32,000 nt of DNA, taken from NCBI GenBank assembly GCA_942492995.1, contig OW818653.1, positions 1,080,001 through 1,112,000 of the forward strand. Direction: 5' to 3'. Under the pieces are notes generated by a model, which was not told the DNA's origin, did no database searches, and worked only from the letters and a program-made list of their open reading frames with translations. This DNA comes from an uncultured Erysipelotrichaceae bacterium (GTDB taxonomy: Bacteria > Bacillota_I > Bacilli_A > Erysipelotrichales > Erysipelotrichaceae). Numbering within the stretch: the stretch's first letter is position 1; each line of letters begins with the position of its first letter. Both the position numbers and the translations under genes were made by a program. Shown piece by piece: positions 4,641 to 31,990 of this stretch.

Positions 4641-4661
4641 AAATAGACATATGTGAAATTT

Positions 4662-4708: not shown

Positions 4709-4737
4709 TATGTGTGTCAATTAGGAGGAAATTATTG

Positions 4738-5751: not shown

Positions 5752-5760
5752 TCTAGATTA

Positions 5761-5788
5761 AGAGACATTCGCAAGAGTGTCTTTTTTT
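5761..5788 (+). terminator. Rho-independent terminator of gap
   Basis: Stem 5761-5770 pairs with 5775-5784 (including two G-U pairs) around a GCAA tetraloop (5771-5774). The T run continues to 5788. Confidence 0.8.
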
Positions 5789-5834
5789 ATACACGTTTAT
5801 TGAGATTCTTTAGTTCATTTGTTATTGTTAGATT

Positions 5835-6071: not shown

Positions 6072-6082
6072 ACCTTCTTTTT
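6053..6082. terminator. Bidirectional terminator shared by the convergent DUF1858 and protease genes
   Basis: A perfect 12-13 bp stem (6053/6054-6065 pairing with 6069-6080/6081) with a 3-nt loop, A-run on the left and T-run on the right. It overlaps the TGA at 6069-6071 and abuts the minus-strand stop at 6081-6083. Confidence 0.75.
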
Positions 6083-13080: not shown

Positions 13081-14061
13081 TTAACTAAGTTTTTCTTGCT
13101 TAAATCGATAATAAATTGTGAACACTATAGAGAACAATTTATATGTTGATTTATTAATAAGTTTAAAATATAAGTTTTTTAATCCACCTTGATTTAAATA
13201 AGAGTTTTGTTTCCATGAAGGAAAGTTATCAGCTAATATGGTATAGCTCAACTCTAAGGTTTTATTACGATCATTCTTGTCTTTAATTTGACACGTTCTT
13301 AAGAAAGAATTACCGAGGAAGAAACGAATGAATAGATATTCCAACTCTAATTTATAGTCATTAAAGAGATGTTTATCCTTATAGAAATTCAAAATATCAT
13401 TAAAAACATAAATCATGTCTTTAACGCGATCATTATGATTATGGGTAATAGACCCAACTGTTTGTCTATAATGGACAAAAGGTATATTAACATAAGACCA
13501 TTTCTTAATAAATGGAGCTAATCGATATAAGAATGATGCGTCTTCATAACGATAACCATCAGGGAAATGAAGATCTAATTGTTTTATAAAATCAGTACGA
13601 TAGAGCTTGTTCCAAAGTGTCGCAAACATTTTAATTAGAATTTCTTTATTATCTAAATAAGGTCCATCATTAGTTCGTGTTTCATAGTCTGGATATGTCC
13701 AATAAAAGTCAGAAAAAACACAATCAGAATTATTATCCTTTGCGCTTAAATAAAGTTTCCCAAACATATCTGATTCGACAATATCGTCACTATCCACAAA
13801 TCCAAAATACTCACTATTAACTTGTTGAAAACCGAAATTACGCGTATGTGCAATTCCACCATTTGGTTTAGTAAAAGATCTAATTAATGTTGGATAATTA
13901 GTTTTATACGCATCAATTATTTCCTGAGAATTATCTGAAGAACCATCATTTACTAGGATTAACTCGAAAGAATCTAATGTTTGATTAACTAAAGAATCAA
14001 GAGTTAACTTAAGATGTTTTTCAGCATTATAAATAGGAACAATCACATTAACTTTTATCAT
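13081..14061 (-). CDS. Family 2 glycosyltransferase (GT-A fold)
   Basis: VIVPIYNAEKHLKLTLDSLVNQTLDSFELILVNDGSSDNS followed by a DSDD (DxD) motif. Its start overlaps the upstream stop (TAATG at 14059-14063). Confidence 0.85.
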   Translation of the reverse strand: MIKVNVIVPIYNAEKHLKLTLDSLVNQTLDSFELILVNDGSSDNSQEIIDAYKTNYPTLIRSFTKPNGGIAHTRNFGFQQVNSEYFGFVDSDDIVESDMFGKLYLSAKDNNSDCVFSDFYWTYPDYETRTNDGPYLDNKEILIKMFATLWNKLYRTDFIKQLDLHFPDGYRYEDASFLYRLAPFIKKWSYVNIPFVHYRQTVGSITHNHNDRVKDMIYVFNDILNFYKDKHLFNDYKLELEYLFIRFFLGNSFLRTCQIKDKNDRNKTLELSYTILADNFPSWKQNSYLNQGGLKNLYFKLINKSTYKLFSIVFTIYYRFKQEKLS

Positions 14062-15917
14062 TATTCACCTAAGCTACCTTTCTTATACTCCAATGAATTA
14101 AAATAATCCGTTTCTACTATCTTAAAGCCTAATTGTAATTTCGCATACAATGCGTCAGCTTCTACTCTAAATTCTTCTTCGGTCTTTGTCCAATTATGAG
14201 TAATTGTTCCTCGTAATGTATCAAACGTAAAGTCATTCGATTTAATTACACCAAATTCATTGAAATTAAATCCTGTATAACTTGGATCAAATACACTTTG
14301 ACCTAAGGCTAGTTGATATGGATATTCTATATTAAATAAGTCATAAATTGTAGGCGCAATGTCTAATGGAGAGGATACTTTATCAATATTACCCATTATT
14401 TCATCATTATGCCAAATTATAAATGGGGTATTAAAACAAATGTTAAATTCAATGCCATTCGCTTCACACATTGTACGATAATCTTCTTTATTTTCAAAAA
14501 GTCCTTTAGGAAAATGATCACCATAGATTATGATTACTAAATCTTTTAATAGATCATTATTTTCATAGTCTTTGAGTAAATCACTTAATCCTTTATCCAA
14601 ATCCATGTTCTTCGCAAAGTATATCTTTTCTGCTTCAGGCATATCAGGATATCGCTTATTCACAACATCGTAATATTTCAACATCGTTTCATTAAGTGTA
14701 TCCATAGAGTAAGGTTGATGACCATTATAGGTAATCCAAAATGAGAAATAATTTTCATATTCATACATGATCCATTTTATGTGATCAATGACATAGGAAT
14801 CTTCCACATTATCATATGCATTTAATCCTAATGCATCATAAAATGTATATCCAAGATTTGGTAACATGACGCTTCGATTGTAATAAACACCATAATTATT
14901 ATGGCTAGCCATTGAGAAATATCCTTGATCCGTAAATGATTTCGCAAGGGTTAATGGATATGCATTCTCCGCAAACGCATTAAATGTAATTTTACCGTTA
15001 TTGGATGGAAGTAAACTTGTATTTACCATAAACTCTGTATCAGATGTAGAACCCGCTAATAGAGGTGAATTATACCCTCTTACAAACAATCCACTATGTT
15101 TAAGGCGATAGAGAGTTGGTGTTAGTTCAGGATCGATAGCTAAGTTATTTAAAGACTCTGCTTCAATAAGGAGAACGTTTAACCCTTCAAAGATTCCTGA
15201 ATAATCACTTTTTACTGTAGCTGGTTTCTGATTAAGTAAAGCGGATATCTGTTGTTCAATTGTTAATTCAGCTTGTACTTCGATTGGTTCAATCGTCATA
15301 TCAAATTCACGTAATAATAATCCGTTCAACCCAAACTGTGCCACAAATACGTTCGTGTTTGGGATATTAGCATAAATAACACTTGAGTCGACAAGATTGA
15401 TTGGATTACTTTGAGATGCGTCTAGCTCTTTATGAAATGTAGAATACTGTGTATATCCTAGAGTAATTAATAAAAGTATTATGAGTAATTGTTGAAATGG
15501 GGATGTTATCACAAGATTTTTCTTATAGAGTTTTATCGCAAGATATAGTGCAATAAATGGAACAGTAAAATAAATCACATCCGTTAATCGCGTAAATTCT
15601 AATGCACTACCTGCGAATTTAAACATATTAGATTGTACGGAAAGTGCTGTAGTAATCATTCCATATTGATTGAAAGATCTAAAGAATACGGTCTGAACGC
15701 CAAAGTATATTGATGTGAGTGCAATTAAAATGAACATAACACCAATTCGTGTTTTCTTTGTAAATAAGAGTAAAAATGCATTTAAAAAGGATAAAACAAT
15801 TAAAAGAACTTTAAAAGCTAAGCCCGTTACAATAATGTATTGAAAAGACAGAATCAAATACGATAATGTGAAAATTAAATTAATAAGAACAAATTGGAAT
15901 TTCTTAAGAGAAAACAT
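14061..15917 (-). CDS. LTA synthase (LtaS) family sulfatase-fold polytopic membrane protein
   Basis: 618 aa with about 5 N-terminal TM helices and an extracytoplasmic sulfatase-like domain. That domain has AGSTSDTEFMVNTSLLP (compare the catalytic Thr motif G-x-T-A/S-D-x-EF of LtaS) and IIIYGDHFP. AAGGAAG RBS at 15924-15930. Confidence 0.8.
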   Translation of the reverse strand: MFSLKKFQFVLINLIFTLSYLILSFQYIIVTGLAFKVLLIVLSFLNAFLLLFTKKTRIGVMFILIALTSIYFGVQTVFFRSFNQYGMITTALSVQSNMFKFAGSALEFTRLTDVIYFTVPFIALYLAIKLYKKNLVITSPFQQLLIILLLITLGYTQYSTFHKELDASQSNPINLVDSSVIYANIPNTNVFVAQFGLNGLLLREFDMTIEPIEVQAELTIEQQISALLNQKPATVKSDYSGIFEGLNVLLIEAESLNNLAIDPELTPTLYRLKHSGLFVRGYNSPLLAGSTSDTEFMVNTSLLPSNNGKITFNAFAENAYPLTLAKSFTDQGYFSMASHNNYGVYYNRSVMLPNLGYTFYDALGLNAYDNVEDSYVIDHIKWIMYEYENYFSFWITYNGHQPYSMDTLNETMLKYYDVVNKRYPDMPEAEKIYFAKNMDLDKGLSDLLKDYENNDLLKDLVIIIYGDHFPKGLFENKEDYRTMCEANGIEFNICFNTPFIIWHNDEIMGNIDKVSSPLDIAPTIYDLFNIEYPYQLALGQSVFDPSYTGFNFNEFGVIKSNDFTFDTLRGTITHNWTKTEEEFRVEADALYAKLQLGFKIVETDYFNSLEYKKGSLGE

Positions 15918-16032: not shown

Positions 16033-17574
16033 TTATTTATTATTGGTCTTATCAAGTTCGAATGTAAAATTTATTATCGATAATTTATCGATGGTATAAC
16101 TCGCAACCATTATGAAATATGGTACAAACGCAAATAAATAACGTGCTCTAGCTTCAAATATCATATTGAATAGAATTATTCCAATACAAATTATATACAG
16201 CAGATATACTTCATCTTCTTTATTTTTTATAAGTATTTGCATACCCATTAGGATAATAATGCTTAACCAAACAAATTGTTTTAATAGTAGGAAATAGTCA
16301 AAATATGCGCCATCATGATAATAATAATTACGTAATGTTTCTGCGATACTTGAGCTACGATCAAACAACTTCTGATAAAAATCACCTTCCATTCCCCACG
16401 CAAAACTACCATCGTTGAAATTGATAACTGCTTTATTGACTAAAAAATTAAGCCAACCATTTTCATTAAGATAATTCACACGAGATTGGATGATTTCCCA
16501 GTTCTTTGTTTCTCGATCAACAATTGTAAATTGACCATAAGAGATTTCCGCATCTTCAGAAGTATATGTTCCATAACTGTCTAAATTAAGTCCTACCATT
16601 AAGTAATGAGGAACTGTAAATGCTAATTCAGGATTTTGTTTGAATTGCCCCAACTCAACAAGTGTTTTCTGAAGTGCGTTTGTACTTATGAATGTAATTA
16701 TCCCAACCACAATAATAATTACAAATCGAGTCAACTCCTGTTTTATGTTTGATTTACGTTTAATCACAAGTTCATATAAGACAATCGCTATTAACATAAT
16801 TAGAGATTGAGGTTTAATTAGACTTCCAATAAACGAACTAATAAAGATTATTGTCCAAGATAGAATATCCCAATAATTACCCTTTAATTTAAGATACACA
16901 TACAAGGCAATGCTCGGAAATATCATCATTAATGTATCTGAATATGGAATGGTAATCCAAGGTGATATTGAACATAGTAATGTGAATAATCCAAAACCCA
17001 TTAATACAACAATTTTATTTTTAATTAGTTTATTTAAATTTAATGCAAGCAATAAACCCGATAGATTTACAGATAACACACTAAATATAACAGTCCCAAA
17101 ATAATAGTTTGCTATACCTAATTGATGAAAAAACTTCATGATATATCCCAATAAAATCGTAATACTCGTTTGATTCACGTGATACGAAAAGTAGTAATTA
17201 AAATACTTCGCAATCTTATCAGGGTGTTCAATGAAATAGAATGCGGCATTTCTAACAGCACTTGCATCCCATCCTGTATAGAAATAGATTTGATATGCAA
17301 TGAAAATTTGGATGAGAAATATTATTAACGAAGTGATGAGTATTATTATCGTAGTCTGTTTTTCATTAATATTTAATTTAATCGTTTTAGTAAAGCTATA
17401 TAAAAGGAAGATGAATATAATTAAAATCACAAAAATAATCCAATTGCTAATTGGCATTCTATTTAATTGAGTTATTGATCCATTAGAATATTGAATTAAC
17501 ACATAACTTATTAATGAAATGATTAATCCGAATAGTAAATTAAGTGATATAAGCGCAAATTTCTTCAATATCAT
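16033..17574 (-). CDS. Polytopic integral membrane protein, probable GT-C-fold (ArnT/PMT-like) glycosyltransferase
   Basis: 513 aa with at least 10 hydrophobic segments by eye, a polar loop YTGWDASAVRNAAFYF after the early TMs, and a larger polar loop at residues about 310-400. RBS AGGGGGA at 17579-17585. The family assignment is tentative. Confidence 0.45.
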   Translation of the reverse strand: MILKKFALISLNLLFGLIISLISYVLIQYSNGSITQLNRMPISNWIIFVILIIFIFLLYSFTKTIKLNINEKQTTIIILITSLIIFLIQIFIAYQIYFYTGWDASAVRNAAFYFIEHPDKIAKYFNYYFSYHVNQTSITILLGYIMKFFHQLGIANYYFGTVIFSVLSVNLSGLLLALNLNKLIKNKIVVLMGFGLFTLLCSISPWITIPYSDTLMMIFPSIALYVYLKLKGNYWDILSWTIIFISSFIGSLIKPQSLIMLIAIVLYELVIKRKSNIKQELTRFVIIIVVGIITFISTNALQKTLVELGQFKQNPELAFTVPHYLMVGLNLDSYGTYTSEDAEISYGQFTIVDRETKNWEIIQSRVNYLNENGWLNFLVNKAVINFNDGSFAWGMEGDFYQKLFDRSSSIAETLRNYYYHDGAYFDYFLLLKQFVWLSIIILMGMQILIKNKEDEVYLLYIICIGIILFNMIFEARARYLFAFVPYFIMVASYTIDKLSIINFTFELDKTNNK

Positions 17575-17756: not shown

Positions 17757-19274
17757 ATGAAACCATATTTTAAGAAATCTTCGAACTTTTTAAGAAATCA
17801 TATTTATGTTGTAAGTGTATTATTTGTTTTTGTGTTCTTCTATTTTATCTCTACCAAAGTACCTCTTGCAGGTGATGACTGGGGTTATGCATTAAATGGA
17901 ATGAAAAATAATCCATTTGTTTTAGCCTTTGAATTCTATTTTACGTGGTCAGGTCGATTCTTTAGTGAACTTTATGGTTTTCTTGTTACACCGCATAAAT
18001 GGATATGGAATAGTTTGAATGCTGGGTTATTCGCTCTAATTATCTATTCTATTCTAAAAATTGCTGGTTTAAAGAAAAGTGTTACAGCATCTTTATTAAT
18101 TATATTCTTAATGTTTAGTGTTAAAGATGAATTGAGAATGGAAACTTATACATGGCTTATGGGTACGACATATCTTATACCTTTAGCACTATCTCTATTC
18201 TATTTTTCAATTGTTTTAAAAAATATCGAGAAATATTCTCGTATTGAAAAATGGATGATACCAGTACTTGGAATTATATTGTTTATATCTAGCTTTATGA
18301 TGGAGAATGCGACAGTCGTATTGGTTTTTGCGAACTTCGTATTATTGGTTTATATCTTTGTACGTGATCGTACGATTCCAATAACTTATTTATCGTTCTT
18401 CTTAATTAGTTTATTAGGTTTGATATTAATTAGAATCTCACCTGGTGCTAGTTCAAGATTATTGCGTGATCATAGTGCTTGGATTAATCTTTCTATCTTT
18501 GAACAATTAAAATTTAATTATACGAATTTTATCCGATTCACCTTCATTGAACATCGTTATCTAGTATTAGTATTCTCTGGATTATCGTTACTAAAATTAT
18601 TAGAGAACTTGATTAAAGAAAGAAAAAATATAGTATTTACACTAATCCATTCGTTATTCTTTATCATTGCGGCCTTTACGAGTTTAACACTTACAATTAA
18701 TAGTCGTTTTCCAAATGAAATATTCAACTTATTCATTGATGTTAATTCTTACTTTAATCTGATTTTTTGGCCATTATTTATTCTTGTAGTGTTCCATTTT
18801 ATCTATATTTCATTTAAAAAAGAAGATCAGCTAAAACTTTTCTTCTTTGTGTTACTTGCAGGTATTAGTAATGGCGTAATGATGTTATCTCCAATATTTG
18901 GATATCGCTCATCGTTGTATACTGTTTATTATCTCATTGTGACATGTGCAATTATTTATTCGAGTTTAGATCAAAAGATTTTCTCTAAGCTACTAATACT
19001 TCCTCTACTTGTGTTATGTTTTAGTACCAGTAAACAATTATTATATAAATACAATTTAGTACAATCTGTCCATAACATTCGCTTATCTCAAATTCAATAT
19101 TACCTCGATAATCCTGATGTTAAGGATATTTGGTTAATACGCTATCCAATTTTTACCATTCATGGTGGTGATATTGAAGCAGATGATACATATCATTTGG
19201 AAGTATTTAAAGAGTTTTATGGATTGGCAGATGATACGACTCTTAATTTCTATTTTCCTGAAGAAGGATATTAG
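17757..19274 (+). CDS. Polytopic integral membrane protein, possible GT-C-type glycosyltransferase or polymerase (DUF6056-like)
   Basis: 505 aa and strongly hydrophobic throughout. The acidic motif VPLAGDDWGYA lies right after the first TM, where GT-C enzymes carry conserved Asp residues in their first outside loop. The C-terminal part of about 70 aa is soluble. Confidence 0.4.
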   Translation: MKPYFKKSSNFLRNHIYVVSVLFVFVFFYFISTKVPLAGDDWGYALNGMKNNPFVLAFEFYFTWSGRFFSELYGFLVTPHKWIWNSLNAGLFALIIYSILKIAGLKKSVTASLLIIFLMFSVKDELRMETYTWLMGTTYLIPLALSLFYFSIVLKNIEKYSRIEKWMIPVLGIILFISSFMMENATVVLVFANFVLLVYIFVRDRTIPITYLSFFLISLLGLILIRISPGASSRLLRDHSAWINLSIFEQLKFNYTNFIRFTFIEHRYLVLVFSGLSLLKLLENLIKERKNIVFTLIHSLFFIIAAFTSLTLTINSRFPNEIFNLFIDVNSYFNLIFWPLFILVVFHFIYISFKKEDQLKLFFFVLLAGISNGVMMLSPIFGYRSSLYTVYYLIVTCAIIYSSLDQKIFSKLLILPLLVLCFSTSKQLLYKYNLVQSVHNIRLSQIQYYLDNPDVKDIWLIRYPIFTIHGGDIEADDTYHLEVFKEFYGLADDTTLNFYFPEEGY

Positions 19275-22040: not shown

Positions 22041-23030
22041 TTAATGTTTTGCGAAATGTTCTTTTAATTTCAAATAAAAAGATAAAGGTTGAATAAGACT
22101 AACATTCATATGCTTTATGTATATTTGGTATTTCTTTGGTAAATTAATCAAATATGGATTTTCTCTCCATTTAGGAAACTTAGTATTTAAAATAGTTAAT
22201 GATTTACTTAAATTAGGTGCTTGATGTTTAGATAATAAAAATCTAAATCCACCGTTTAACATTAGTTGTTCAATCATTAAGAACTCAAGTTCATAATAGT
22301 ACAATTCAAAAAGATTATTTCTTTCAAAATATTCTGTGCATAATTCCATTATCTTAAAAATATCTTGTGTCTTTGGATTATCTACAGAACCCATGATTGA
22401 AGTAGTTCTTTGACGATAATGAACTAAGCTTTCGTTCACAACACTTATTTTCTTCGCAATTGTAAAGAATGGGACTGATACTGGTATATCTTCATACCAT
22501 AATCCGATTGGATACTTTAATCCTGATTCGATAAATAAGGTTCTTCGATACAATTTATTCCACGCAAATAAGGGCGAAAGAAATAATGACTTAGTCATAC
22601 TTACACCATCAACTGCGACAAATCCTTGTTTATAAAGTTTATCATTTGAATTATCGTAAAAATATTCCAGATCACAAACGACTAAATCAGAGTCATTTTC
22701 GTAAGCACTTTGATATAGTTTTTCATACATTGTATGATCTACGACATCATCACTATCGATAAATCCAATGTACTCACCTTTTGCGTAAGGAATGCCATAA
22801 TTACGTGCATCTCCCAATCCACCATTTTCTTTGATTAAGCTCACGAATTTATTAGGGTATTTCTCAACATATTGATCGATAATGATTTGACTGTTATCTT
22901 TTGTCCCATCGTTTACGACAATGATTTCAATCTCATTGAGAGTTTGACGCGCTAAAGAACCTAAACATTCATCTAGGTATTTTTCAACGTTATAAACTGG
23001 GACAATAACACTCACTTTAATTGGATACAT
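22041..23030 (-). CDS. Family 2 glycosyltransferase
   Basis: VSVIVPVYNVEKYLDECLGSLARQTLNEIEIIVVNDGTKDNS followed by DSDD. The start is 1 nt after the upstream stop. Confidence 0.85.
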   Translation of the reverse strand: MYPIKVSVIVPVYNVEKYLDECLGSLARQTLNEIEIIVVNDGTKDNSQIIIDQYVEKYPNKFVSLIKENGGLGDARNYGIPYAKGEYIGFIDSDDVVDHTMYEKLYQSAYENDSDLVVCDLEYFYDNSNDKLYKQGFVAVDGVSMTKSLFLSPLFAWNKLYRRTLFIESGLKYPIGLWYEDIPVSVPFFTIAKKISVVNESLVHYRQRTTSIMGSVDNPKTQDIFKIMELCTEYFERNNLFELYYYELEFLMIEQLMLNGGFRFLLSKHQAPNLSKSLTILNTKFPKWRENPYLINLPKKYQIYIKHMNVSLIQPLSFYLKLKEHFAKH

Positions 23031-23031
23031 T

Positions 23032-24102
23032 CTATATTCCGCCTATTAGATTCAATATTTTAGTTTTCAATCCATTTCCATACAATAATCGATTCAATTT
23101 ACGATAGACTAGTTTATCAAATACAGCTCTATCTTTAGAGTTAATTAATGCTAAATCATTAATACGTTCTTTACCACTAACATCAGACATCTTTGTGTAA
23201 TATTCTTCAATTACTGAATAATGAGGTAATAAAGGTTCAAAAATTGTGTATGTAGATTTAAGTTTTTCGAGTAATACTTTCTTATCCGCATGAACTTTTT
23301 CAATCATATTAAATACGAACTTGAATGTTTCAAACATACGATAATAAAATACCGATGGTACATTATCCAATTGTTTAGATTGTTCAAGAATTTCTGTTTG
23401 AACTTTTATCCAGTAATCGATTACTTGTGGTTTAACGTCAGTCGAAGTATTTCCTTCACGATTAATCAAATAATACGCTAATGGTTCATTTGAATAAACC
23501 ACTTTATTGGCTTGATTTAAACACACAAAGAATAAAAGATTATCGGTAAAACTAACTTTTAATGGAAATTTCACTTTTTTCGCAAACTCTGTTTTATAGA
23601 GTTTTGAATGTGGGGATGGATCCACGAAATATAAGTCTTTAAAATTATCGTCTGATCTCTTATAACATTGTTTATCAATCAGTTTAACAATGGATTTATT
23701 ATACGTTTGGTCATAGACTACTTCACTATTATCTGAATAGATTAAGTTTTTCGATCCAACTACCATATCCGCTTCATTTGATTCCATTAAATAAAGTAAA
23801 TGTTCAATCGTATTTTCGACTAAATAATCATCTGGATCACAAATAAGTGCATAAGGTGTATCGATCATCGCAAAAGCCATGTTTAAAACTGAACCGTAGC
23901 CACCGTTTTCCTTTTTAATGGACTTAATGAAATCATACTTTTCAGCGTATTCATTCGCTATTTCAAATTCGTTCGCTGGTGAACCATCGTTGATAATATA
24001 CGCAATAAAATCCTTTGATGTTTGATTGACTAAACTATCCAAACATTTCCGGATGTATTGTTCCACATTGTATGTAGGTACGATAATACTTACTTTTGCC
24101 AT
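23032..24102 (-). CDS. Family 2 glycosyltransferase
   Basis: VSIIVPTYNVEQYIRKCLDSLVNQTSKDFIAYIINDGSP followed by DPDD. GAGGGA RBS at 24108-24113. Confidence 0.8.
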   Translation of the reverse strand: MAKVSIIVPTYNVEQYIRKCLDSLVNQTSKDFIAYIINDGSPANEFEIANEYAEKYDFIKSIKKENGGYGSVLNMAFAMIDTPYALICDPDDYLVENTIEHLLYLMESNEADMVVGSKNLIYSDNSEVVYDQTYNKSIVKLIDKQCYKRSDDNFKDLYFVDPSPHSKLYKTEFAKKVKFPLKVSFTDNLLFFVCLNQANKVVYSNEPLAYYLINREGNTSTDVKPQVIDYWIKVQTEILEQSKQLDNVPSVFYYRMFETFKFVFNMIEKVHADKKVLLEKLKSTYTIFEPLLPHYSVIEEYYTKMSDVSGKERINDLALINSKDRAVFDKLVYRKLNRLLYGNGLKTKILNLIGGI

Positions 24103-24110
24103 AGTTCCCT

Positions 24111-25559
24111 CTAGTTCTTTTTGAGTTTAACAAGTCGTAAAACTTGATCTAACATTTTAATATGAAAAGGTTCTTTCATTAACGTTAATAATGCCATATA
24201 AACAATAAATCCTGCAGTAACTTGAAGTAGATTCGTCAAGATACGTGGTCCAAAGCTTAATCCAATTCCATAAACAACTGCACACATTAGAATTGCGGAA
24301 ATAAAGTAAATAATAATACTCTTCAATCCAACATTTAATTGAATCGATTTACGAATATAGAAATATTGAACCGCGGTTACACATAATTCCGCAAACATAA
24401 CACTTAAACCTGCGCCGATTGCGCCAAATCGTGGGATTAATAATAAATTGAATAAGAAGTTCGCAATTGCGCCAATAATAACGCTCTTACTGTATTGGCT
24501 AAGTCTGTTTGTTGGGACTAAATATTGTGTACCAAATACATTGGAAAGTGCGATAAATAGAATAATTGGACTCATCATAGCGATTAAGAAACCAACAATT
24601 TTGAATTCTGGTGCCATAAACCAATCAATAAAGAATGGCCCAACGCCAATCATCCCAAACATCATTGGAATCGCTAGATACAATGCGAGTTTAAAGGTCA
24701 CATTTAAATAGTCATTGATTTTATTATCATCACCTTTTGCGTGTTCATTTGCGATTCGAGGTAACATAACCATTCCAATTGAAGTGATAAAGTATAAGAA
24801 CATTTTATCGAAACGAATTGCTTGTTGATAAAAGGCTAATTGTGTTTTATCCGCAAGTAATCCTGTCATTGTTTGATCTAAAACGCTATAAATACTAATC
24901 GCAATTTGCGGGACAAATAAGACTAAATTAGGTTTCATATGAATTTTATACGATTCAATTATATTAACTGGTTTAAAATTGATGTACTCTTTGAGTTGGA
25001 AAAATAACACTAATTGAGCAAGTACTGCTGTCACAACATTGATCCAGACAAAGATATCCAAATCATCGATTGATTTAACGAACATGAAGATTAGCGCTAC
25101 ATTAATCAATCTAAATATAATACTTCTTAAGGATGATTTCTTAAAGTCTTCAACCCCAAGGAAGAACCATGTTATATCAAATACTGTTGCGAACAATGAT
25201 ACACCTTGGATGAGATAAATATTCTTATATTCTAATGGAGCGAATACGACAAATAAGAAATAAAGTATGATCACAAGTAACATATTGCATACTTGCATGC
25301 TAAGAATACCCATAAATGTTTTAGATAAATGAGCTTTATCATCTCTTACACGAGCAATTTCTTTATTCCCATACATTGATATACCCATATATCCGAATAT
25401 GACAAACCATTGTACGATTGAACTAGAAAAAGCATTTATTCCAAGACCTTCTGCGCCAATCGTTCGAGTGGTATAAGGTACTACAATAAATGGGATTAAG
25501 ATTGTGAATACTTGATAGAGTATATAAAAAATGTAGTTTTTAAAGAGATTTCGTTTCAT
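24111..25559 (-). CDS. Wzx-type oligosaccharide/polysaccharide flippase (Polysacc_synt, MOP superfamily)
   Basis: 482 aa with about 12-14 TM segments. The N-terminus LYQVFTILIPFIVVPYTTRTIGAEGLGINAF is typical of RfbX/Wzx/TuaB-like flippases. Confidence 0.8.
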   Translation of the reverse strand: MKRNLFKNYIFYILYQVFTILIPFIVVPYTTRTIGAEGLGINAFSSSIVQWFVIFGYMGISMYGNKEIARVRDDKAHLSKTFMGILSMQVCNMLLVIILYFLFVVFAPLEYKNIYLIQGVSLFATVFDITWFFLGVEDFKKSSLRSIIFRLINVALIFMFVKSIDDLDIFVWINVVTAVLAQLVLFFQLKEYINFKPVNIIESYKIHMKPNLVLFVPQIAISIYSVLDQTMTGLLADKTQLAFYQQAIRFDKMFLYFITSIGMVMLPRIANEHAKGDDNKINDYLNVTFKLALYLAIPMMFGMIGVGPFFIDWFMAPEFKIVGFLIAMMSPIILFIALSNVFGTQYLVPTNRLSQYSKSVIIGAIANFLFNLLLIPRFGAIGAGLSVMFAELCVTAVQYFYIRKSIQLNVGLKSIIIYFISAILMCAVVYGIGLSFGPRILTNLLQVTAGFIVYMALLTLMKEPFHIKMLDQVLRLVKLKKN

Positions 25560-25594: not shown

Positions 25595-26758
25595 CTACTT
25601 AATCTTATCGAACAGTTGAAGACTACGATAAATAATCGCATCCATATTATAGTATTGGTACTCAGCTAATCGACCTAAAAGATGGAAATTATTGATACCT
25701 TCACAAGCTTGTACATAACGTTGATATTGAGTTTGATTCGATTCAGTAAATATTGGATAATATGGAATATTTCCTTTATCCGCATTACGATCATACAAGA
25801 GTGAGTATTCTACTGCGATTGTCGTATTCTCAGGCAGCTTCTCCATCATGTGTTTATATTCTGTAATGCGTGTATAACCATGTTCATCTGCTGGTGTAGG
25901 ATAATTGACTGTCCCTACTGGTTGATAGATATCGTTATGTGATTGTAGATCAAACTCAAGTGAACGATATGGCAATGCCCCAAAACGATAATCTAATAGT
26001 TCATCAATCGCTCCTGTATAAATTAATTTCCCAGTAAATGGTTCACCCATAAATTTAATGGATTTATTTTCTACATCAATATCGAGTAATGTACGTGCTT
26101 CTGTATTTAATCTTACTTCGATATTTGGATGATTTAACATCTTCTTAAATATTTCAATATAGCCATTCTTAGGCATTTGTTGGTATTTATCTTGGAAATA
26201 TCGATCGTCATATGATACATGTACAGGTACACGATTGGTAACCATAGGATCAATCTCTTCAACGGTTAAGCCCCATTGTTTCATCGTGTAATCTTTAAAT
26301 ACTTTTTCAAACACAAAGTTTGCCAAGTTCTGAAGAACTGGGTTTTCATGTTTCATAAGTTCAAGAATTGTGACTTTCTTTTCCATTCCATATGTATCAA
26401 TTAATACCTTTTTCATATTTGTTGCGGTTTGTTCATCAAAACACATTTCAATTGATTTAAGATTAAACGGAATTGGAACTAGTTGACCATTCACATAACC
26501 TAGTACGCGATGTTCATATGGATACCATTCTGTAAATTGTGATAAGTAATTAACTACTTCTAGACGATTTGTATGGAATATATGAGGACCATACTTATGT
26601 ACATTCACCCCATTTTCATCCTTGTAATCAAACATGTTTCCAGCAATTTCTTTACGTTTATCGATGACTAAAACTGATTTACCGAGAGATGCGAAACGTT
26701 CTGCTGTAACAGATCCAGCATAACCACATCCAACTACAATCACATCGTATTTATTCAT
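25595..26758 (-). CDS. glf: UDP-galactopyranose mutase
   Basis: FAD-binding motif YDVIVVGCGYAGS, plus GPHIFHTN and GRLAEYQYYNMD. I chose the ATG at 26758 because AAGGAG lies 6 nt upstream. The ORF-track start at 26779 adds 7 residues. Confidence 0.9.
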   Translation of the reverse strand: MNKYDVIVVGCGYAGSVTAERFASLGKSVLVIDKRKEIAGNMFDYKDENGVNVHKYGPHIFHTNRLEVVNYLSQFTEWYPYEHRVLGYVNGQLVPIPFNLKSIEMCFDEQTATNMKKVLIDTYGMEKKVTILELMKHENPVLQNLANFVFEKVFKDYTMKQWGLTVEEIDPMVTNRVPVHVSYDDRYFQDKYQQMPKNGYIEIFKKMLNHPNIEVRLNTEARTLLDIDVENKSIKFMGEPFTGKLIYTGAIDELLDYRFGALPYRSLEFDLQSHNDIYQPVGTVNYPTPADEHGYTRITEYKHMMEKLPENTTIAVEYSLLYDRNADKGNIPYYPIFTESNQTQYQRYVQACEGINNFHLLGRLAEYQYYNMDAIIYRSLQLFDKIK

Positions 26759-27692
26759 GTTTAGCTCCTTTTGGTTCAATTAATTCTTCTATAATAAATG
26801 ATGGACGTTGACGAGACGCATCAAATGCTCTCCATAAATATTCACCTATGATACCAAGGGTTAATAAAATAAGCCCATAGAAAAATAGACTCGTTATCAT
26901 AAGTGTAGTCCAACCTTCAACTTCAATCCCAATAAAGAATTTAGCGTATAAAATATATAATAACCAAATGATTGTCCCAAAGAACGTAAGAATACCCATC
27001 GTTGAAATAAATCGTATTGGGAAATAGCTAAAGGCTAAGATACTATCGACAAATAATTTAATCTTTTTCGATAATGTCCAACGACTCTTCCCTTTTTCAC
27101 GTTTAAGTCGGGTGTAGTAAATCATGTCAGTTTTAAATCCTGCCCATAAGATCTGTCCCATGATCGTAGAATTTTTCTCATCCATCATTTCTAATACTTT
27201 GATCACTTTTCGATCAATGAGGAAACAATCAAAACCACCATCTGGCATTGTTTTAATCGCAATTCTACGCATTAGTTTGTAATATAAATTTGAGAAGAAG
27301 ATCTGTAACCAAGGTTCTTGACGATCTTTTCGAATTGCTAATACAACATTGTTTCCATCTTTCCATTTCTGAAACATCTCAAGAATCATTGAAGAAGGTT
27401 CTTGTAAATCTGCGGTTTTCATTACAGCACAATCACCAGTTGAATGAATCAATCCAGCAAGAATTGCCGCATGTGATCCAAAATTACGTGAAAGTTTGAC
27501 TACCATTACATTAGAATCCTTTGATTGGATATCTTTTAGAATTGTAAATGATTGATCGAGTGATCCATCATCCACAAAAACTAACTCATATTGGTCGATT
27601 TTACCTAGAACTTTTTCTTTTAAATCATCGTATAAATCATATAAATTCATTTCATTAAAATAAACTGGAATAATAATTGATAATTTAGCCAT
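26751..27692 (-). CDS. GtrB/CsbB/ArnC-like polyprenyl-phosphate glycosyltransferase (GT2 with two C-terminal TM helices)
   Basis: LSIIIPVYFNE...VFVDDGSLDQS GT2 core, two C-terminal TMs, and the family-typical LGIIGEYLWRAFDASRQRPSFIIEE. I chose the ATG at 27692 (MAKLSIII). It shares 8-nt overlaps with both neighbours. Confidence 0.8.
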   Translation of the reverse strand: MAKLSIIIPVYFNEMNLYDLYDDLKEKVLGKIDQYELVFVDDGSLDQSFTILKDIQSKDSNVMVVKLSRNFGSHAAILAGLIHSTGDCAVMKTADLQEPSSMILEMFQKWKDGNNVVLAIRKDRQEPWLQIFFSNLYYKLMRRIAIKTMPDGGFDCFLIDRKVIKVLEMMDEKNSTIMGQILWAGFKTDMIYYTRLKREKGKSRWTLSKKIKLFVDSILAFSYFPIRFISTMGILTFFGTIIWLLYILYAKFFIGIEVEGWTTLMITSLFFYGLILLTLGIIGEYLWRAFDASRQRPSFIIEELIEPKGAKHE

Positions 27693-28086
27693 GGTTCTTA
27701 CAGTACTCCTTAAATTCTGTATAATCTCGTATATATTCAGAATTGTCATAAGGTTGATCAGATATGACTAATAAAACAGTACCTGGTTTAAAATGAACCA
27801 TCTCTTTCCATGTTCCTTTTGGACAATATAATGCCTTAGTTGGTAAGTCTAAATGATATTCATGTAATGTAGAACCATTATCTACTACAATATCGCATCC
27901 ACCACTTACACAAATAAAAATAAAGGAACTGTTGCGATTCGCATGTTTTCCTCTAACTGCTTCAGTATCCGTATCATAGATATAGAAAAGACGTTCCATT
28001 TTAAATGGAATGTTCTTCATATTTTCTACAGAAATGAGTTTTCCTCGATTATCCCCAAACTCAGTTAGATTGATCCAATGACTCAT
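27685..28086 (-). CDS. FdtA/QdtA/WxcM-C-like cupin sugar 3,4-ketoisomerase (dTDP-4-keto-6-deoxyhexose 3,4-isomerase)
   Basis: 133 aa. EFGDNRGKLISVE near the N-terminus, RGKHANR (compare RGxHAH) and a cupin beta-barrel length fit the FdtA family. AAAGGAG RBS at 28091-28097. Confidence 0.75.
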   Translation of the reverse strand: MSHWINLTEFGDNRGKLISVENMKNIPFKMERLFYIYDTDTEAVRGKHANRNSSFIFICVSGGCDIVVDNGSTLHEYHLDLPTKALYCPKGTWKEMVHFKPGTVLLVISDQPYDNSEYIRDYTEFKEYCKNHG

Positions 28087-28579
28087 AAGACTCCTTTAAT
28101 ATACTATACCAGTTTAAACTATAAAATTCATTTTCTATCTTTATATCATCAATAAAGGTACCTTCTAATTTAAACCCAAACTTTTGATAAAAACGATTCG
28201 CTCTCACATTGTGTGTAAGTACATTTAGATAAACTTTATGTAAATGTATTTCGTTAAACGCAATCTCTAACAATGCTTTACTCGCATCATACGCAATGTT
28301 TGTTCCTTGTGCAATTTTACGTAATACAATCGCAAATTCTGCTTTCATGTTAAGTGTATCGATATTTTTTAAACTGATGGTTCCAAGATATTCATCTGAA
28401 TCATTCACAATCGCATAGTGTCTTGCGTATGTAAAATCTTGTGCTAACTCTACGAACTTCTGTACAGATTCATAGGTTGAATTAGAAAAATCAGCTCTAA
28501 ATTGACGTGTTATCTCTGTATCTTTCATCCATTCCAACATGAATGGAATATCGATTTTACTTAATTTCCGAAGTTTCAT
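28061..28579 (-). CDS. GNAT family N-acetyltransferase (RimJ/RimL-like), probable sugar N-acyltransferase
   Basis: 172 aa from the ATG at 28579, which sits 1 nt after the aminotransferase stop. GNAT core YLGTISLKNID...FAIVLRKIAQGTNIAYDASKALLEIAF...NVRANRFYQKFGF. The ORF-track start at 28609 would overlap the upstream gene by 29 nt. Confidence 0.7.
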   Translation of the reverse strand: MKLRKLSKIDIPFMLEWMKDTEITRQFRADFSNSTYESVQKFVELAQDFTYARHYAIVNDSDEYLGTISLKNIDTLNMKAEFAIVLRKIAQGTNIAYDASKALLEIAFNEIHLHKVYLNVLTHNVRANRFYQKFGFKLEGTFIDDIKIENEFYSLNWYSILKESYESLDQSN

Positions 28580-28580
28580 T

Positions 28581-29678
28581 TTAAACCTTAAATTGGTTGA
28601 GTTTATCAATCAGATAGCTTAGTTCATCATTCGTCATTCCATTGTATAACGGTAACGTTAAAACTTGGTTTGCGAGTTCTTCACAGATTGGAAAATCACC
28701 CTTCTTATACCCTAATTCACTATAAGCTTCTTGAAGATGTGGAGGAATTGGATAATGAATTAAACTTTGAATCTCATTTGCACTTAAATAGGTCATTAAC
28801 TCATCACGATAATTTGTCTTTACGACAAATAGATGCCATACATGTGTACAATTCTTATCAACTCTTGGTAACTCAATAAATGGGTTATTCACTTCATTTA
28901 TTAATCGTTGTGCAAGATTTTCACGCTCTTCAGTTAGTTCATTCATAAAGGTTAATTTAACGCGCAGTAAACCTGCTTGAAGTTCATCTAAACGGGAATT
29001 AGTCCCAACGATTTCATTGAAATAACGTTTCTGAGAGCCATAATTACGATATGTTCTTACTTTTTCTGCTAATTGTTCATCATTTGTCACAATTGCACCA
29101 CCATCCCCAAAACAACCTAAATTCTTTGATGGATAGAAACTAAAACATCCAACATGTCCAATTGATCCAGTCATTCTGTGATTATATTGTGCACCATGGG
29201 ATTGAGCACAATCTTCCACAAGATATAAATTATATTTCTCACAGATTTGAACAATTTTTTCCATATTCGTAGCTTGACCATATAAATGTGTAACTAAAAT
29301 AGCTTTTGTCTTAGGAGTAATATATGATTCTAAATTCGCATCATCCATATTATGAAATTCATTCGGTTCGACAAATACAGGTGTTGCGCCATTCATCGTA
29401 ATGCCCATTACTGTCGCAATATAGGTGTTTGATTGAACTAATACTTCATCACCCTCTTTAATTCCTAAGAGTTTAATTGAGATCCATAGTGCATCTAAAC
29501 CATTCGCTAAACCAACACAATAGTTTGAACCAATGTAATTTGCGAATTCTTGTTCAAATGCCTTAACTTCATTCCCTAAGATATAATACCCACTACGTAA
29601 AACGTCCAACGCTTTTTGTTCATATGCATCTTGATGCATAAAAAACTGACGATCTAATGCGTTTGCGCTTATTTTCAT
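28581..29678 (-). CDS. DegT/DnrJ/EryC1/StrS family PLP-dependent sugar aminotransferase (FdtB/QdtB-like)
   Basis: 365 aa. FEQEFANYIGSNYCVGLANGLDAL, and FSFYPSKNLGCFGDGGAIVTND with the PLP lysine. The ATG overlaps the YfhO stop (ATGA at 29675-29678). Confidence 0.85.
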   Translation of the reverse strand: MKISANALDRQFFMHQDAYEQKALDVLRSGYYILGNEVKAFEQEFANYIGSNYCVGLANGLDALWISIKLLGIKEGDEVLVQSNTYIATVMGITMNGATPVFVEPNEFHNMDDANLESYITPKTKAILVTHLYGQATNMEKIVQICEKYNLYLVEDCAQSHGAQYNHRMTGSIGHVGCFSFYPSKNLGCFGDGGAIVTNDEQLAEKVRTYRNYGSQKRYFNEIVGTNSRLDELQAGLLRVKLTFMNELTEERENLAQRLINEVNNPFIELPRVDKNCTHVWHLFVVKTNYRDELMTYLSANEIQSLIHYPIPPHLQEAYSELGYKKGDFPICEELANQVLTLPLYNGMTNDELSYLIDKLNQFKV

Positions 29679-31990
29679 ATTTGAACACCTCTTTTTTTAG
29701 AACGACGTAAATCATAAACGATTATACCAATTGATAGAATTACACCAATAATCGAAAGTATTAAACCAGCTTTAAACCCTTCAGGTATGAAATTCATTAC
29801 AATTTCATTATAACCACTGTCGACTTGTATACCGATAAATCCACCATTAACCTGATACGTTTTCACAACATTTCCATTAACTTTAACTTCCCAACCTGCA
29901 TCATATGGAATCTTAAGAATCATAAACCCTTTTTCAATGGTTGTAATATCACCATAAAAGTAATTATTATGATAATCAATATGTTGTAATTTACCTGATG
30001 AATTTCCAATCAATGTTTTAATTTCTTCGACATTCTCAGGTTTCGCAATAACAGATTTAGTTAAAAATGGTAAACGATCGACTTCTGTTAATTTCATTAA
30101 ATAATCGAAATTCACGACATTCGTATACAACTCACCAACTGATGTATAATCCAGATTTTCATAAACTAGGAGTGACCCCTGATAATTCTCTTGGATTAAT
30201 TTAAAGTTATTATGAGGTAGTTCATCTGCGCTCACCACTATTGCGTATTTGGTACTTAAGAAATTAATGATTTCCGCATCTTTGATGTTAAATATCCAAT
30301 CACTTTCAAAATCCTTTACACTTGGAGCTAACTTCTTCATATCATTGAATGAAGGCGCATACGTTGAATCATATGTCATCAAACCTTTTAACTGATAATG
30401 TAAATTATGATTATGACTGTATGACCAATATAAACTATCATGCGGTACATAAACACGATAGAATTCACTGTAATTATCTGGATCTAAACTTTCGAAATAA
30501 CGATTTAAATCATTTGGGTTTTCTTGTAGAACATGCGTTGCCTTATTAACAAACTCCCACGTTGAATTCTCATTTAAGCGTATAAATCCAATTAACCAGA
30601 TATTATGCGCTGCCAATTGAATTATAGTTAAAACTAATATACTAACCATTAACCATTTCTTGTTTAGTTTGATTAAGATATATAACGTTATGAATACAAC
30701 AAGCGATACCATTGATAGATAGAATAATCCAATATTATCTGTAAATTGATTTAAATTACCAGTTACTAACATCGATAATGGAACATTAAAGACTAAGATA
30801 ATCGATATTACGATTAAGCTTAGTTTTAGATTACGCATATTAATTAAGTGTGTATTCGTTAAGTATCGTGAAGCGTTGATTAGATTCACAATAATAAATA
30901 GATACGTCCATCTAAAACTTGGACTACTAAATCCAAGTATCATCATATTTCCACTTGGAATAATAAGTAATAGAATCATAAAGCTATATAATCCAATCAT
31001 CGCATTACGATAATACTTATCTTTATCTGTAATAAATTGTGGTAATAGAATTGATGTAATCGATCCAGCCCATAAACATAATTCACGGGTTACATGCGAT
31101 CCCGTCTCAAACACATTATAATCTTGATATATAATATTTTGACTTGGGACAAATAGCGCTTGTAGTTGATGGAAGTAAATTTCAGGTTTATCAAACACTA
31201 AGGCAAAATAGAATGTACCTACACGATCATTTTGTATGATATTTAATAAGGATGGTAGAATAAGTACCATTGTGGTTAATACCGCAATTAGATATACTCC
31301 AATTAATAGTAGTGTATCCTTAATAAAATCTTTGTATCCTTCACGTACACTATAATATCGAGCGATAAAATAGAATGGTGTAAAGAATGATAACGAGAAG
31401 AACATATAGTAATTAGTTAACAATAATAATGATGTACTAATAATGAATAGCGTAAGTTTCTTCTCTTTGAGATACATCTCAACAGCTAAGAAGAATAATG
31501 GCGTAAAGCTATACGCAGACACAAACATTGGTTGACCTAAGAAGAATATAACCCAACTACTAAAGCCAAAACATAGCGCCAATGTAATAGAGACGATATT
31601 TGATGATTTTAAGTACTTTAATAAGGCAAACATACTTAACGATGAAATAACTAATTTAATTATGGTTTGAAGTTTAAATATTTCATAGAAATGAACATTA
31701 AATAATAATGAGACGTAATAATAAACATCTCCTAACATATAAAAACTCTTACTCGCCCAGAAATTATTTCCTAAAAACAAATTCCATGAATAAAATGGGA
31801 ACTCTCTGTTCTTTATAAATTGTCCGATTAATGATCTAAATTCTGTATAGTATGGGAAATATGTAGGTTTTAAATCTCCACCATATTCAAAGGGTAATCC
31901 TTTGATTAAATAAGGCGATATTATAAATAAAACTAATACTAACGCAGTTAAAGTAAGCCCTATGATGGGTAATAATCGTTTCTTGTTCAT
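29675..31990 (-). CDS. YfhO family polytopic membrane glycosyltransferase (GT-C-like)
   Basis: 771 aa. The N-terminus PFEYGGDLKPTYFPYYTEF...FPFYSWNLFLGNNFWASKSFYMLGD is followed by many TMs. A C-terminal beta-rich domain (IPYDAGWEVKVNGNVVKTYQVNGGFIGIQVDSGYNEIVMNFIPEGFKAG) is followed by a final TM, the typical YfhO layout. Confidence 0.8.
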   Translation of the reverse strand: MNKKRLLPIIGLTLTALVLVLFIISPYLIKGLPFEYGGDLKPTYFPYYTEFRSLIGQFIKNREFPFYSWNLFLGNNFWASKSFYMLGDVYYYVSLLFNVHFYEIFKLQTIIKLVISSLSMFALLKYLKSSNIVSITLALCFGFSSWVIFFLGQPMFVSAYSFTPLFFLAVEMYLKEKKLTLFIISTSLLLLTNYYMFFSLSFFTPFYFIARYYSVREGYKDFIKDTLLLIGVYLIAVLTTMVLILPSLLNIIQNDRVGTFYFALVFDKPEIYFHQLQALFVPSQNIIYQDYNVFETGSHVTRELCLWAGSITSILLPQFITDKDKYYRNAMIGLYSFMILLLIIPSGNMMILGFSSPSFRWTYLFIIVNLINASRYLTNTHLINMRNLKLSLIVISIILVFNVPLSMLVTGNLNQFTDNIGLFYLSMVSLVVFITLYILIKLNKKWLMVSILVLTIIQLAAHNIWLIGFIRLNENSTWEFVNKATHVLQENPNDLNRYFESLDPDNYSEFYRVYVPHDSLYWSYSHNHNLHYQLKGLMTYDSTYAPSFNDMKKLAPSVKDFESDWIFNIKDAEIINFLSTKYAIVVSADELPHNNFKLIQENYQGSLLVYENLDYTSVGELYTNVVNFDYLMKLTEVDRLPFLTKSVIAKPENVEEIKTLIGNSSGKLQHIDYHNNYFYGDITTIEKGFMILKIPYDAGWEVKVNGNVVKTYQVNGGFIGIQVDSGYNEIVMNFIPEGFKAGLILSIIGVILSIGIIVYDLRRSKKRGVQI

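Follow-up and report, generated by a model that had tools for sequence, protein, structure and literature searches.

A putative transmembrane glycosylation operon with its own dTDP-amino-sugar supply in an uncultured Erysipelotrichaceae bacterium

We analysed a 32,000-nucleotide stretch of DNA from an uncultured Erysipelotrichaceae bacterium (contig OW818653.1, positions 1,080,001 to 1,112,000), referred to here as the window. Five joined minus-strand genes encode a YfhO-family GT-C glycosyltransferase, a DegT-family aminotransferase, a GNAT N-acyltransferase, an FdtA-type cupin and a GtrB/ArnC-type family 2 glycosyltransferase (GT2). Judging from sequence comparison, this operon probably constitutes a multi-component transmembrane glycosylation pathway that has its own sugar supply and decorates a cell-envelope acceptor. 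The gene identities, folds and active-site residues are established, as is the conserved linkage of the four genes from DegT to GT2, hereafter the cassette, with GT-C, GtrA and rmlA/rmlB genes.

In the proposed pathway dTDP-4-keto-6-deoxyglucose, provided by RmlA and RmlB encoded elsewhere in the genome, would be isomerized to a 3-keto sugar by the FdtA/WlaRA-type cupin, aminated at C-3 by the QdtB-like aminotransferase and N-acetylated on the new amino group by the GNAT protein to give dTDP-Fuc3NAc or dTDP-Qui3NAc. The GtrB/ArnC-type GT2 would then move the sugar onto undecaprenyl phosphate (C55-P) at the cytoplasmic membrane face. Following flipping of the lipid-linked sugar to the outer face, the YfhO GT-C enzyme would hand it to a cell-envelope acceptor. 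We infer the identity of the flippase, the pairing of YfhO with the GT2, the acceptor and the stereochemistry at C-4.

Recurrence of the sugar cassette

The original prediction, which had been made from the bare sequence, supposed that the sugar branch is directly coupled to the GT2 and the GT-C enzyme. Comparison with related loci (L numbers) supports this coupling: the cassette moves as a unit and is found next to YfhO, GtrII-type, GtrA and rmlA/rmlB genes, a linkage that we regard as the decisive support. The order DegT-GNAT-FdtA-GT2 was intact in 10 distinct loci (the window, L002, L003, L004, L010, L012, L014, L016, L101 and L102), with GT2 identities of 61-100% and varying surroundings and orientations. 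The cassette comes straight after YfhO in the window, L002-L004 and L010. In L101 it is placed between two YfhO genes in opposite orientation to both, in L102 it is convergent with a YfhO / GT_STM0557_N / YfhO block, and in L012 it is located at the far end of the cluster, adjoining luxS. It is joined to ABC-transporter-dependent polymer genes in L014, together with YfhO and GtrA, and in L016, together with a GtrII-type GT-C enzyme (PF14264). Altogether, a YfhO partner was present in the window, L001-L004, L010, L012, L014, L101 and L102. The precursor genes also join the cassette: in L004 and L010 rmlA (TIGR01207, 471 bits) directly follows the GT2 gene, at the position that glf occupies in the window, and rmlB (TIGR01181, 490 bits) lies ~3 kb away.

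L012 encodes a second GtrB-type GT2 (3662-4594, minus strand; motif S-A-D-L-Q-D-P-P), which is divergent from its YfhO gene (4646-6946, plus strand). Because this one locus holds two lipid-loading enzymes, the pairing of its YfhO protein is ambiguous.

A metagenome scan anchored on the GT2 alone returned 80 loci at 29-58% identity. FdtA was encoded within 3 kb of the GT2 in 15/27 loci of the window GT2 clade, compared with 0/48 canonical relatives (Fisher p = 7.6e-9, in a test that treats loci as independent and ignores shared ancestry). FdtA is directly upstream of or overlaps the GT2 gene in 12 distinct related loci besides the window, and the GT2-anchored scan placed it immediately 5' of the GT2 gene in L019, L022, L025, L029 and L030. 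L019 and L025 display the minimal order FdtA-GT2-GtrA, and GtrA is likewise found directly 3' of the GT2 gene in L014 and L040. The isomerase variant co-varies with the GT2 clade, clade copies carrying the residues H-N-K and the L040 copy H-H-R.

Departures from the four-gene order were also observed. In L021 (8856-13104) a cassette-type DegT gene abuts the GT2 gene, no FdtA was detected, and a gene for a LicD-domain protein follows. L022 and L030 have the order DegT-FdtA-GT2 with no GNAT gene in between, which suggests that the N-acyl group is different or absent in this variant.

Linkage of this kind bears on an alternative in which the two halves of the operon are functionally separate. The dTDP-amino sugar would be used by an ordinary cytoplasmic glycosyltransferase for a polysaccharide repeat unit, and the GT2 and YfhO would add glucose (Glc), galactose (Gal) or N-acetylglucosamine (GlcNAc) from a UDP donor, as CsbB/YfhO or GtlA/GtlB do. 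The characterized Gram-positive systems all use one of these three sugars (PMC8035078 Table 1), further GT2 genes of the cluster could take the dTDP-sugar, and some members of the GT2 clade have no FdtA nearby. Two separate functions would be hard to reconcile with the overlapping or abutting FdtA and GT2 genes in the 12 loci and the window, with a cassette that changes context as a unit even in its minimal FdtA-GT2-GtrA form, and with an isomerase variant that follows the GT2 clade and an FdtA gene that is found near none of the 48 canonical relatives. We consider this alternative quite unlikely and favour the coupled pathway.

Several points nevertheless weigh against the coupled pathway, the neglect of shared ancestry in the Fisher test being one. 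No FdtA was within reach in about 12/27 clade loci (for example L020, L023, L024 and L027), and membrane proteins of the PMT_2, DUF2142 or DUF6077 families adjoin some of these FdtA-less members. The FdtA link is thus an enriched rather than a defining feature of the clade, and membership does not fix the donor. We infer the donor specificity of the GT2 from linkage only. YfhO homologues at <=50% identity are frequently encoded away from the cassette. A tblastn search of the window found no rmlA, rmlB or gtrA, an absence that the original prediction had noted correctly. Besides YfhO, the window encodes other possible GT-C or polymerase proteins, namely a DUF6056 protein (Table 1) and a 513-aa membrane protein (16033-17574). 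Finally, the first Asp of DxDxQ is missing from the GT2, and this may mean an altered mechanism or, less likely, an altered activity.

In the window itself, every junction that had been described for the five genes was matched on reading the minus strand. The YfhO stop and the DegT start share ATGA at 29675-29678. The DegT stop codon TAA ends at 28581 and a single spacer base (28580) separates it from the GNAT ATG at 28579-28577. The GNAT stop TGA (28063-28061) and the FdtA ATG at 28086 define a 26-nt overlap (28061-28086), and an AAGGAG ribosome-binding site is located ahead of the FdtA start. The FdtA stop and the GT2 start fall inside ATGGCTAA at 27685-27692, again preceded by AAGGAG. The further overlap said to tie the module to the UDP-galactopyranose mutase gene glf is present as well, the GT2 stop and the glf start lying inside ATGAATAA at 26751-26758. 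Longer starts in the open reading frame (ORF) list (TTG 28609 for GNAT and ATG 27749 for the GT2) were disfavoured, since alignment of orthologues backs the shorter ones, on which the original prediction had relied.

Small gaps separate the genes that follow glf, namely wzx, two GT2 genes and those for a DHHW-like and an MBOAT protein, a run that reaches 19271; the two GT2 genes are syntenic in L003 and L010. At the other end, the close relatives L001 and L002 have a divergent gene upstream of YfhO, a 208-aa ORF, and beyond it an LCP ligase that bears a PASTA domain; YfhO is therefore taken to be the first gene of the operon. A promoter and terminator scan found no convincing internal terminator; promoter-like sites were fewer than in shuffled sequence and terminator-like sites about equal. 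Overlapping stop and start codons are ordinary in bacterial operons; it is by recurring in other loci that this gene set exceeds chance.

Table 1. Genes of the operon and of the adjoining cluster, with window coordinates
Feature	Coordinates	Strand	Length and matches
YfhO-family GT-C glycosyltransferase	29675..31990	-	771 aa; Pfam YfhO 2e-63
DegT/QdtB-type PLP-dependent sugar aminotransferase	28581..29678	-	365 aa; DegT_DnrJ_EryC1 5e-105
GNAT N-acyltransferase	28061..28579	-	172 aa from ATG 28579; Acetyltransf_3 4e-18
FdtA/WlaRA-type cupin	27685..28086	-	133 aa; Pfam FdtA 1.4e-43
GtrB/ArnC-type polyprenyl-phosphate GT2	26751..27692	-	313 aa; Glycos_transf_2 1e-22
UDP-galactopyranose mutase Glf	25595..26758	-	TIGR00031 6.5e-127, above cut-off; overlaps GT2 stop
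Wzx-type (Polysacc_synt) flippase	24111..25559	-	PF01943 2e-27
Two cytoplasmic GT2s	23032-24102 and 22041-23030	-	PF00535 3e-28 and 4e-36
DUF6056 / GT_STM0557_N membrane protein	17757..19274	+	505 aa; PF19528 8e-27

Predicted enzymes of the pathway

Profile searches with hmmscan, which had been proposed as a check, confirmed the family of all five proteins (Table 1). The GT2 is predicted to make C55-P-(3-acetamido-3,6-dideoxyhexose). It consists of a GT-A domain and two C-terminal transmembrane helices. Its residues 3-304 align with GtrB (5ekp, 2e-55) and residues 2-312 with ArnC (9hwj, 1.5e-39), both alignments covering the two helices, and this full-length match gives it the architecture of a polyprenyl-phosphate glycosyltransferase. 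Its NCBIfam matches, PgfS (1e-60; 206 bits against a cut-off of 500) and ArnC (2e-44; 152 against 529), both remained below the equivalog cut-offs.

Equivalents of GtrB D96, Q98, D157, R122, R125, R197 and W207 are kept, D155 being the counterpart of D157. The first Asp of the DxDxQ motif is not: the window motif reads T93-A-D95-L-Q97, so that D95 and Q97 are retained and Thr93 aligns with GtrB D94 and ArnC D100; the following Glu98 aligns with GtrB D99. This is a property of the clade, in which K-(T/A/Q/S)-A-D-L-Q-E replaces the canonical D-x-D-L-Q-(D/H)-P-P. The first Asp was absent in 118/120 of the closest GT2 homologues (which have T, A, S or Q instead), no motif being found in the other two, and also in 27/75 scanned GT2 loci.

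In DxDxQ, metal is bound by the second Asp and the Gln. The first Asp was proposed as the catalytic base for all polyprenyl-phosphate glycosyltransferases in the 2025 ArnC structure paper, and the GtrB cryo-TREM paper of the same year described its conservation as universal and named it the most probable base, while keeping D157 and D99 in consideration (PMC12690121 and PMC12698845). On the evidence of the alignments, the clade contradicts universal conservation of this residue. If the clade is active, the base would be D155 or Glu98. An active enzyme of this clade would be a natural test of the proposed family-wide catalytic base, and the clade thus bears on the question left open by the 2025 ArnC/GtrB structure papers.

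The cupin is predicted to be a dTDP-4-keto-6-deoxyglucose 3,4-ketoisomerase. Among solved structures it matched FdtA (2pa7, 1.9e-30), WlaRB (5tpu, 1.3e-30), WlaRA (5tpv, 3e-28) and QdtA (5e-18), and is about equally near to the first three, with QdtA more distant. Its signature is R14, H48, N50 and K94, where FdtA has R15, H49, H51 and H95; the catalytic His49 of FdtA is thus matched by H48. H48, N50 and K94 were found in 17/17 FdtA copies adjoining this GT2 clade, of which all except two also have R14, whereas the FdtA protein next to the more distant GT2 of L040 has the canonical H-x-H and Arg. An inactive isomerase had been considered as an explanation for the change from His51 to Asn and was rejected, as the variant is present in every cassette copy, in many protein clusters and in a solved WlaRA. 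The latter structure (5tpv, deposited as 'TDP-fucose-3,4-ketoisomerase') also has H-A-N and Lys, and H-x-N occurs in about 56/186 domains of the 150 best representative clusters, about 45 of which have the Lys too.

The DegT protein is predicted to act at C-3 of a dTDP-3-keto-6-deoxyhexose, a regiospecificity suggested by its similarity to QdtB and by the neighbouring isomerase. Its best solved relative is QdtB (3frk; 2e-120, 405 bits, residues 22-364), followed by 7b0d, 7n63, WlaRG (5u1z) and DesV (2oga). It fell under all NCBIfam equivalog cut-offs, including those of the C-4 aminotransferases (ArnB, 183 against 631). The motif SFYPSKNLG holds a candidate lysine for binding pyridoxal phosphate (PLP). 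The Lys94 and His-x-Asn signature shared with WlaRA tilts the prediction towards the galacto form, Fuc3NAc, and the QdtB-like aminotransferase tilts it the other way, towards gluco. The two indications on the C-4 stereochemistry thus disagree.

From its gene context, the GNAT protein is predicted to N-acetylate the dTDP-3-amino sugar. It matched NCBIfam PseH below the cut-off (2.5e-17), and the nearest solved structures were SpeG and AAC(6'), with PseH weak. FdtC and QdtC have a left-handed beta-helix fold; the Acetyltransf_3 match and the closest structures place the window protein outside that type. A GNAT gene is nonetheless located between DegT and FdtA in 10/10 intact cassettes, and GNAT-FdtA fusions were found in 17 representative protein clusters (P0311, P0318, P0324, P0370 and others), 15/17 of them with the H-N-K isomerase signature. 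The fusions tie the GNAT protein to the pathway despite its lack of homology to FdtC/QdtC, and a role as functional replacement of the FdtC/QdtC-type acetyltransferase is supported by this pattern. As far as sequence and comparison reach, each step of the route originally proposed fits the evidence, with a GNAT protein as its acyltransferase rather than an FdtC/QdtC-type enzyme.

YfhO is predicted to be the extracytoplasmic transferase that uses the lipid-linked sugar. A sequence search found no solved structure resembling it. We obtained an AlphaFold2 model from an alignment of 48 homologues (pLDDT 91.5, pTM 0.90), which displays ~13 transmembrane helices, a beta-rich outside domain (510-735) and a last transmembrane helix. 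The best Foldseek match of the model in the PDB was ArnT (5f15; E 1.8e-5, target TM-score 0.50), and the further matches AftD, STT3, AglB, AftA and PglB are likewise all GT-C enzymes that use lipid-linked sugars. D39 and D88 of the first outside loop are invariant across the 48 homologues and would be candidate catalytic residues. The model is that of a GT-C fold transferase, with the loop bearing D39 and D88 predicted to be outside the membrane.

The best genome match of the window YfhO protein has 94% identity. A comparison of YfhO gene neighbourhoods, suggested earlier as a check, was borne out in part: orthologues at 45-95% identity are encoded beside the cassette in L001-L004, L010, L101 and L102, and the link is often lost at <=50% identity. 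The use of YfhO orthology alone to track the cassette was accordingly abandoned, as it fails below about 50% identity.

The GT2 and YfhO proteins raise the question of whether the acceptor could be protein. The pathway would be unchanged, and secreted or membrane proteins would receive the sugar on Ser/Thr residues, in the manner of the streptococcal YfhO-family enzymes PgtC2 and PgfM1. Streptococcal enzymes of this family modify Ser/Thr-rich protein regions (PMC12041528), and one window gene encodes a surface protease of 2245 aa that is rich in Ser/Thr and carries an fn3 array. PgfS is the best NCBIfam match of the GT2, and the YfhO protein matches PgfM1 and PgfM2, in its C-terminus only; these matches are far under the equivalog cut-offs, however (206 against 500 bits for PgfS and 59 against 1500 for PgfM2), and the operon contains no epimerase (PgfE). 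The protease is made of folded fn3 domains, has no disordered Ser/Thr tracts and is not kept beside the cassette in relatives. The genes around the operon are those of polysaccharide synthesis (glf, wzx, GT2s, LtaS-like and MBOAT), and in relatives it is flanked by an LCP ligase. Protein O-glycosylation is on balance an improbable use of the pathway, and we retain a polysaccharide acceptor.

Flippase, acceptor and neighbouring genes

The acceptor is most likely the galactofuranose (Galf)-containing wall polysaccharide of the surrounding cluster, which includes glf, wzx, GT2s, LtaS/GacH-like and MBOAT genes and, upstream in relatives, the LCP ligase. Wzx is the sole flippase candidate in the window. 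The DUF6056 / GT_STM0557_N protein is a candidate GtrC-like GT-C enzyme, which would be an alternative user of the lipid-linked sugar. Members of its family are also encoded beside YfhO genes in L098, L099, L100 and L102.

Such a cluster could also use the lipid-linked sugar in another way, resembling assembly of the lactococcal polysaccharide pellicle (PSP). C55-P-(3-acetamido-3,6-dideoxyhexose) would prime an oligosaccharide that is extended by the two downstream GT2s, with Galf provided via Glf, and flipped by Wzx; a GT-C enzyme such as YfhO would then polymerize it or transfer it to the wall polymer. Experiments support the lactococcal scheme, in which Glf, a Wzx flippase and a GT-C transferase take part in assembly on C55-P (PMC10821137), and the string YfhO ... 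GT2-glf-wzx-GT2-GT2 is contiguous in the window. The window has Wzx and lacks GtrA, and the window ORFs of >=90 aa that were scanned included no phosphoglycosyl transferase (WecA/TagO/WbaP type). On the other hand, genes for the initiating transferase and for the small flippase often lie outside clusters of this kind, as the review tables show for GtcA and CflA (PMC8035078). Furthermore, WpsA is of the GacI type, which is without transmembrane helices and needs a GacJ-like partner (PMC10821137), whereas the window GT2 is of the GtrB/ArnC type with two helices of its own. Elsewhere the cassette adjoins GtrA (L014, L019 and L025), a GtrII-type GT-C enzyme (L016) and ABC-transporter-dependent polymer genes (L014 and L016), an arrangement typical of the addition of single-sugar side chains. 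We consider a priming role unlikely and prefer decoration of the polymer.

Other genes of the window also relate to the cell envelope. An LtaS/GacH-like sulfatase-domain membrane protein of 618 aa (14061-15917, minus strand) is encoded next to the 513-aa polytopic membrane protein (16033-17574, minus strand), which has no Pfam match; in L012 the equivalent neighbour is an O-antigen_lig-like protein. The pair may comprise a glycerol-phosphate transferase and a polymerase or ligase. Between 19271 and 21903 (minus strand) the MBOAT acyltransferase gene overlaps by one base with that of a 412-aa protein weakly matching DHHW. This pair, probably an O-acylation module for the polymer, is kept in L003, and in L101 and L102 MBOAT is accompanied by a Pfam-less neighbour.

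On the plus strand, an LPG_synthase_C (DUF2156) protein and an Acetyltransf_9 GNAT protein form a pair (2792-4640) that is also found in L012 (17104-18920), where it is syntenic with genes for an XRE regulator, a Glyco_tran_28_C protein, a GT4 enzyme and GAPDH. DUF2156 proteins, which we take to be tRNA-dependent aminoacyl transferases, suggest aminoacyl modification of an envelope component by this pair. A GT4 gene is bracketed by the two halves of a split glycosyltransferase, one Alg14-like (42-512, plus strand) and one Alg13-like (Glyco_tran_28_C; 1672-2151, plus strand), and the genes overlap at both junctions (512 and 1672-1675). The protease is a secreted S8 subtilase (6081-12818, minus strand). 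Its long fn3 array is built from five copies of a 798-nt unit at 92-99% identity; alternate copies reach 97-99% identity to the reference copy. The repeats exceed the period limit of Tandem Repeats Finder and were found by a separate repeat search. The GC content of the subtilase region is 0.39-0.42, compared with about 0.30 in the flanks.

Phage adsorption, immune recognition and antibiotic tolerance are governed by the sugars that Gram-positive bacteria add to their wall polymers outside the cytoplasm. If the proposed pathway is correct, its 3-acetamido-3,6-dideoxyhexose cassette would widen the known chemistry of these glycosylation systems, and Erysipelotrichaceae and related Firmicutes of the gut and the environment would be predicted to bear a new surface antigen. 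The cassette would also provide a portable four-gene module for the glycoengineering of lipid-linked rare sugars. A broader proposal, to which we give somewhat less than even weight, is that the cassette is a widespread, self-contained lipid-linked Fuc3NAc/Qui3NAc donor module of Firmicutes that serves varied GT-C enzymes (YfhO, GtrII-type and others). It would then be the first system in Gram-positives to draw on a rare dTDP-amino-deoxy sugar for transmembrane glycosylation, with a GT2 clade that works without the first Asp of DxDxQ.

Comparison with known systems

The original prediction had drawn a parallel to the Arn pathway. In both schemes a DegT-family aminotransferase acts, the amino sugar is N-acylated before it is loaded onto the lipid, and an ArnC-type GT2 and a GT-C transferase follow. 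Arn differs in using a UDP-pentose made via the ArnA decarboxylase/formyltransferase, in its ArnD deformylase and ArnE/F flippase, and in having lipid A as acceptor. Profile searches found no ArnA, ArnD, ArnE or ArnF domains in the window. Because these components are absent from the window and the equivalog scores were not reached, the relation is one of analogy and not of membership. As an analogy it is a good one, ArnT also being the best structural match of the YfhO model.

The sugar branch resembles the Fdt (Aneurinibacillus), Qdt (Thermoanaerobacterium) and WlaR (Campylobacter jejuni 81116) pathways in its cupin 3,4-ketoisomerase, which has H-x-N and Lys as in WlaRA, and in its QdtB-like C-3 aminotransferase. 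In the known dTDP-Fuc3NAc and dTDP-Qui3NAc pathways the dTDP-sugar is known to be used by cytoplasmic glycosyltransferases for O-antigen, lipooligosaccharide or S-layer glycan. The window differs from them in acylation by a GNAT protein and in the linkage of the sugar branch to a polyprenyl-phosphate glycosyltransferase.

With the CsbB/GtcA/YfhO and GtlA/GtcA/GtlB systems of Bacillus, Staphylococcus and Listeria the window has in common the Pfam YfhO family and a GtrB-type GT2. In this three-component route C55-P is loaded by a GT-A enzyme that has transmembrane helices, the product crosses the membrane by means of a small flippase, and a YfhO or PMT_2 GT-C enzyme transfers the sugar to lipoteichoic or wall teichoic acid outside the cell (PMC8035078). 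Central metabolism supplies these systems with UDP-GlcNAc or UDP-Gal, and they lack sugar-synthesis genes of their own, whereas the window has three sugar-modifying genes between the GT-C and GT2 genes and is without GtrA/GtcA.

Lactococcal PSP (WpsA/WpsB, Glf, WpsG, WpsH/I and WpsJ) and the group A carbohydrate (GAC; GacI/J/K/L) are alike in forming a C55-P-sugar by a GT2 and in combining Glf, a Wzx-type flippase and a GT-C enzyme in one wall-polysaccharide cluster (PMC10821137). They differ in the helix-less WpsA and GacI, which need their small partner, and in the sugar, GlcNAc from UDP-GlcNAc.

In Xanthomonas campestris and X. hortorum, wxc region 3 likewise holds an aminotransferase, a GT2, an isomerase with acetyltransferase, and membrane proteins in one block, which supplies the rhamnan O-antigen with its Fuc3NAc side branch. 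It differs in its Gram-negative host and lipopolysaccharide (LPS) O-antigen acceptor, in the fusion of acetyltransferase and isomerase in WxcM, and in an outside transferase that is no YfhO protein. The acetyltransferase half of WxcM is not known to be a GNAT. Vorhölter et al. reportedly described WxcL as GtrB-like and WxcN as GtrA-like in 2001. The genes wxcK (aminotransferase), wxcL (glycosyltransferase), wxcM (acetyltransferase/isomerase), wxcN (small membrane protein) and wxcO adjoin rmlA and rmlB (PMC12573098). Mutants in wxcK and wxcN lose the branch of Fuc3NAc (3-acetamido-3,6-dideoxygalactose) yet still make the rhamnan main chain (PMC4878081), which indicates that the branch is added separately. 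The sugar class is the same as that proposed for the window, and in Xanthomonas it is added after polymerization.

These comparisons place the claim that the coupling is an unusual variant. Among Gram-positives it is well founded: the systems tabulated in a 2021 review add only Glc, Gal or GlcNAc (PMC8035078), which makes a dTDP-amino-deoxy branch unusual there. It does not extend further, since Xanthomonas wxc is a precedent (PMC4878081, PMC12573098) and the cassette is common in metagenomes. Most likely, then, the pathway is of a known type and carries a sugar for which no Gram-positive example of it has yet been described.

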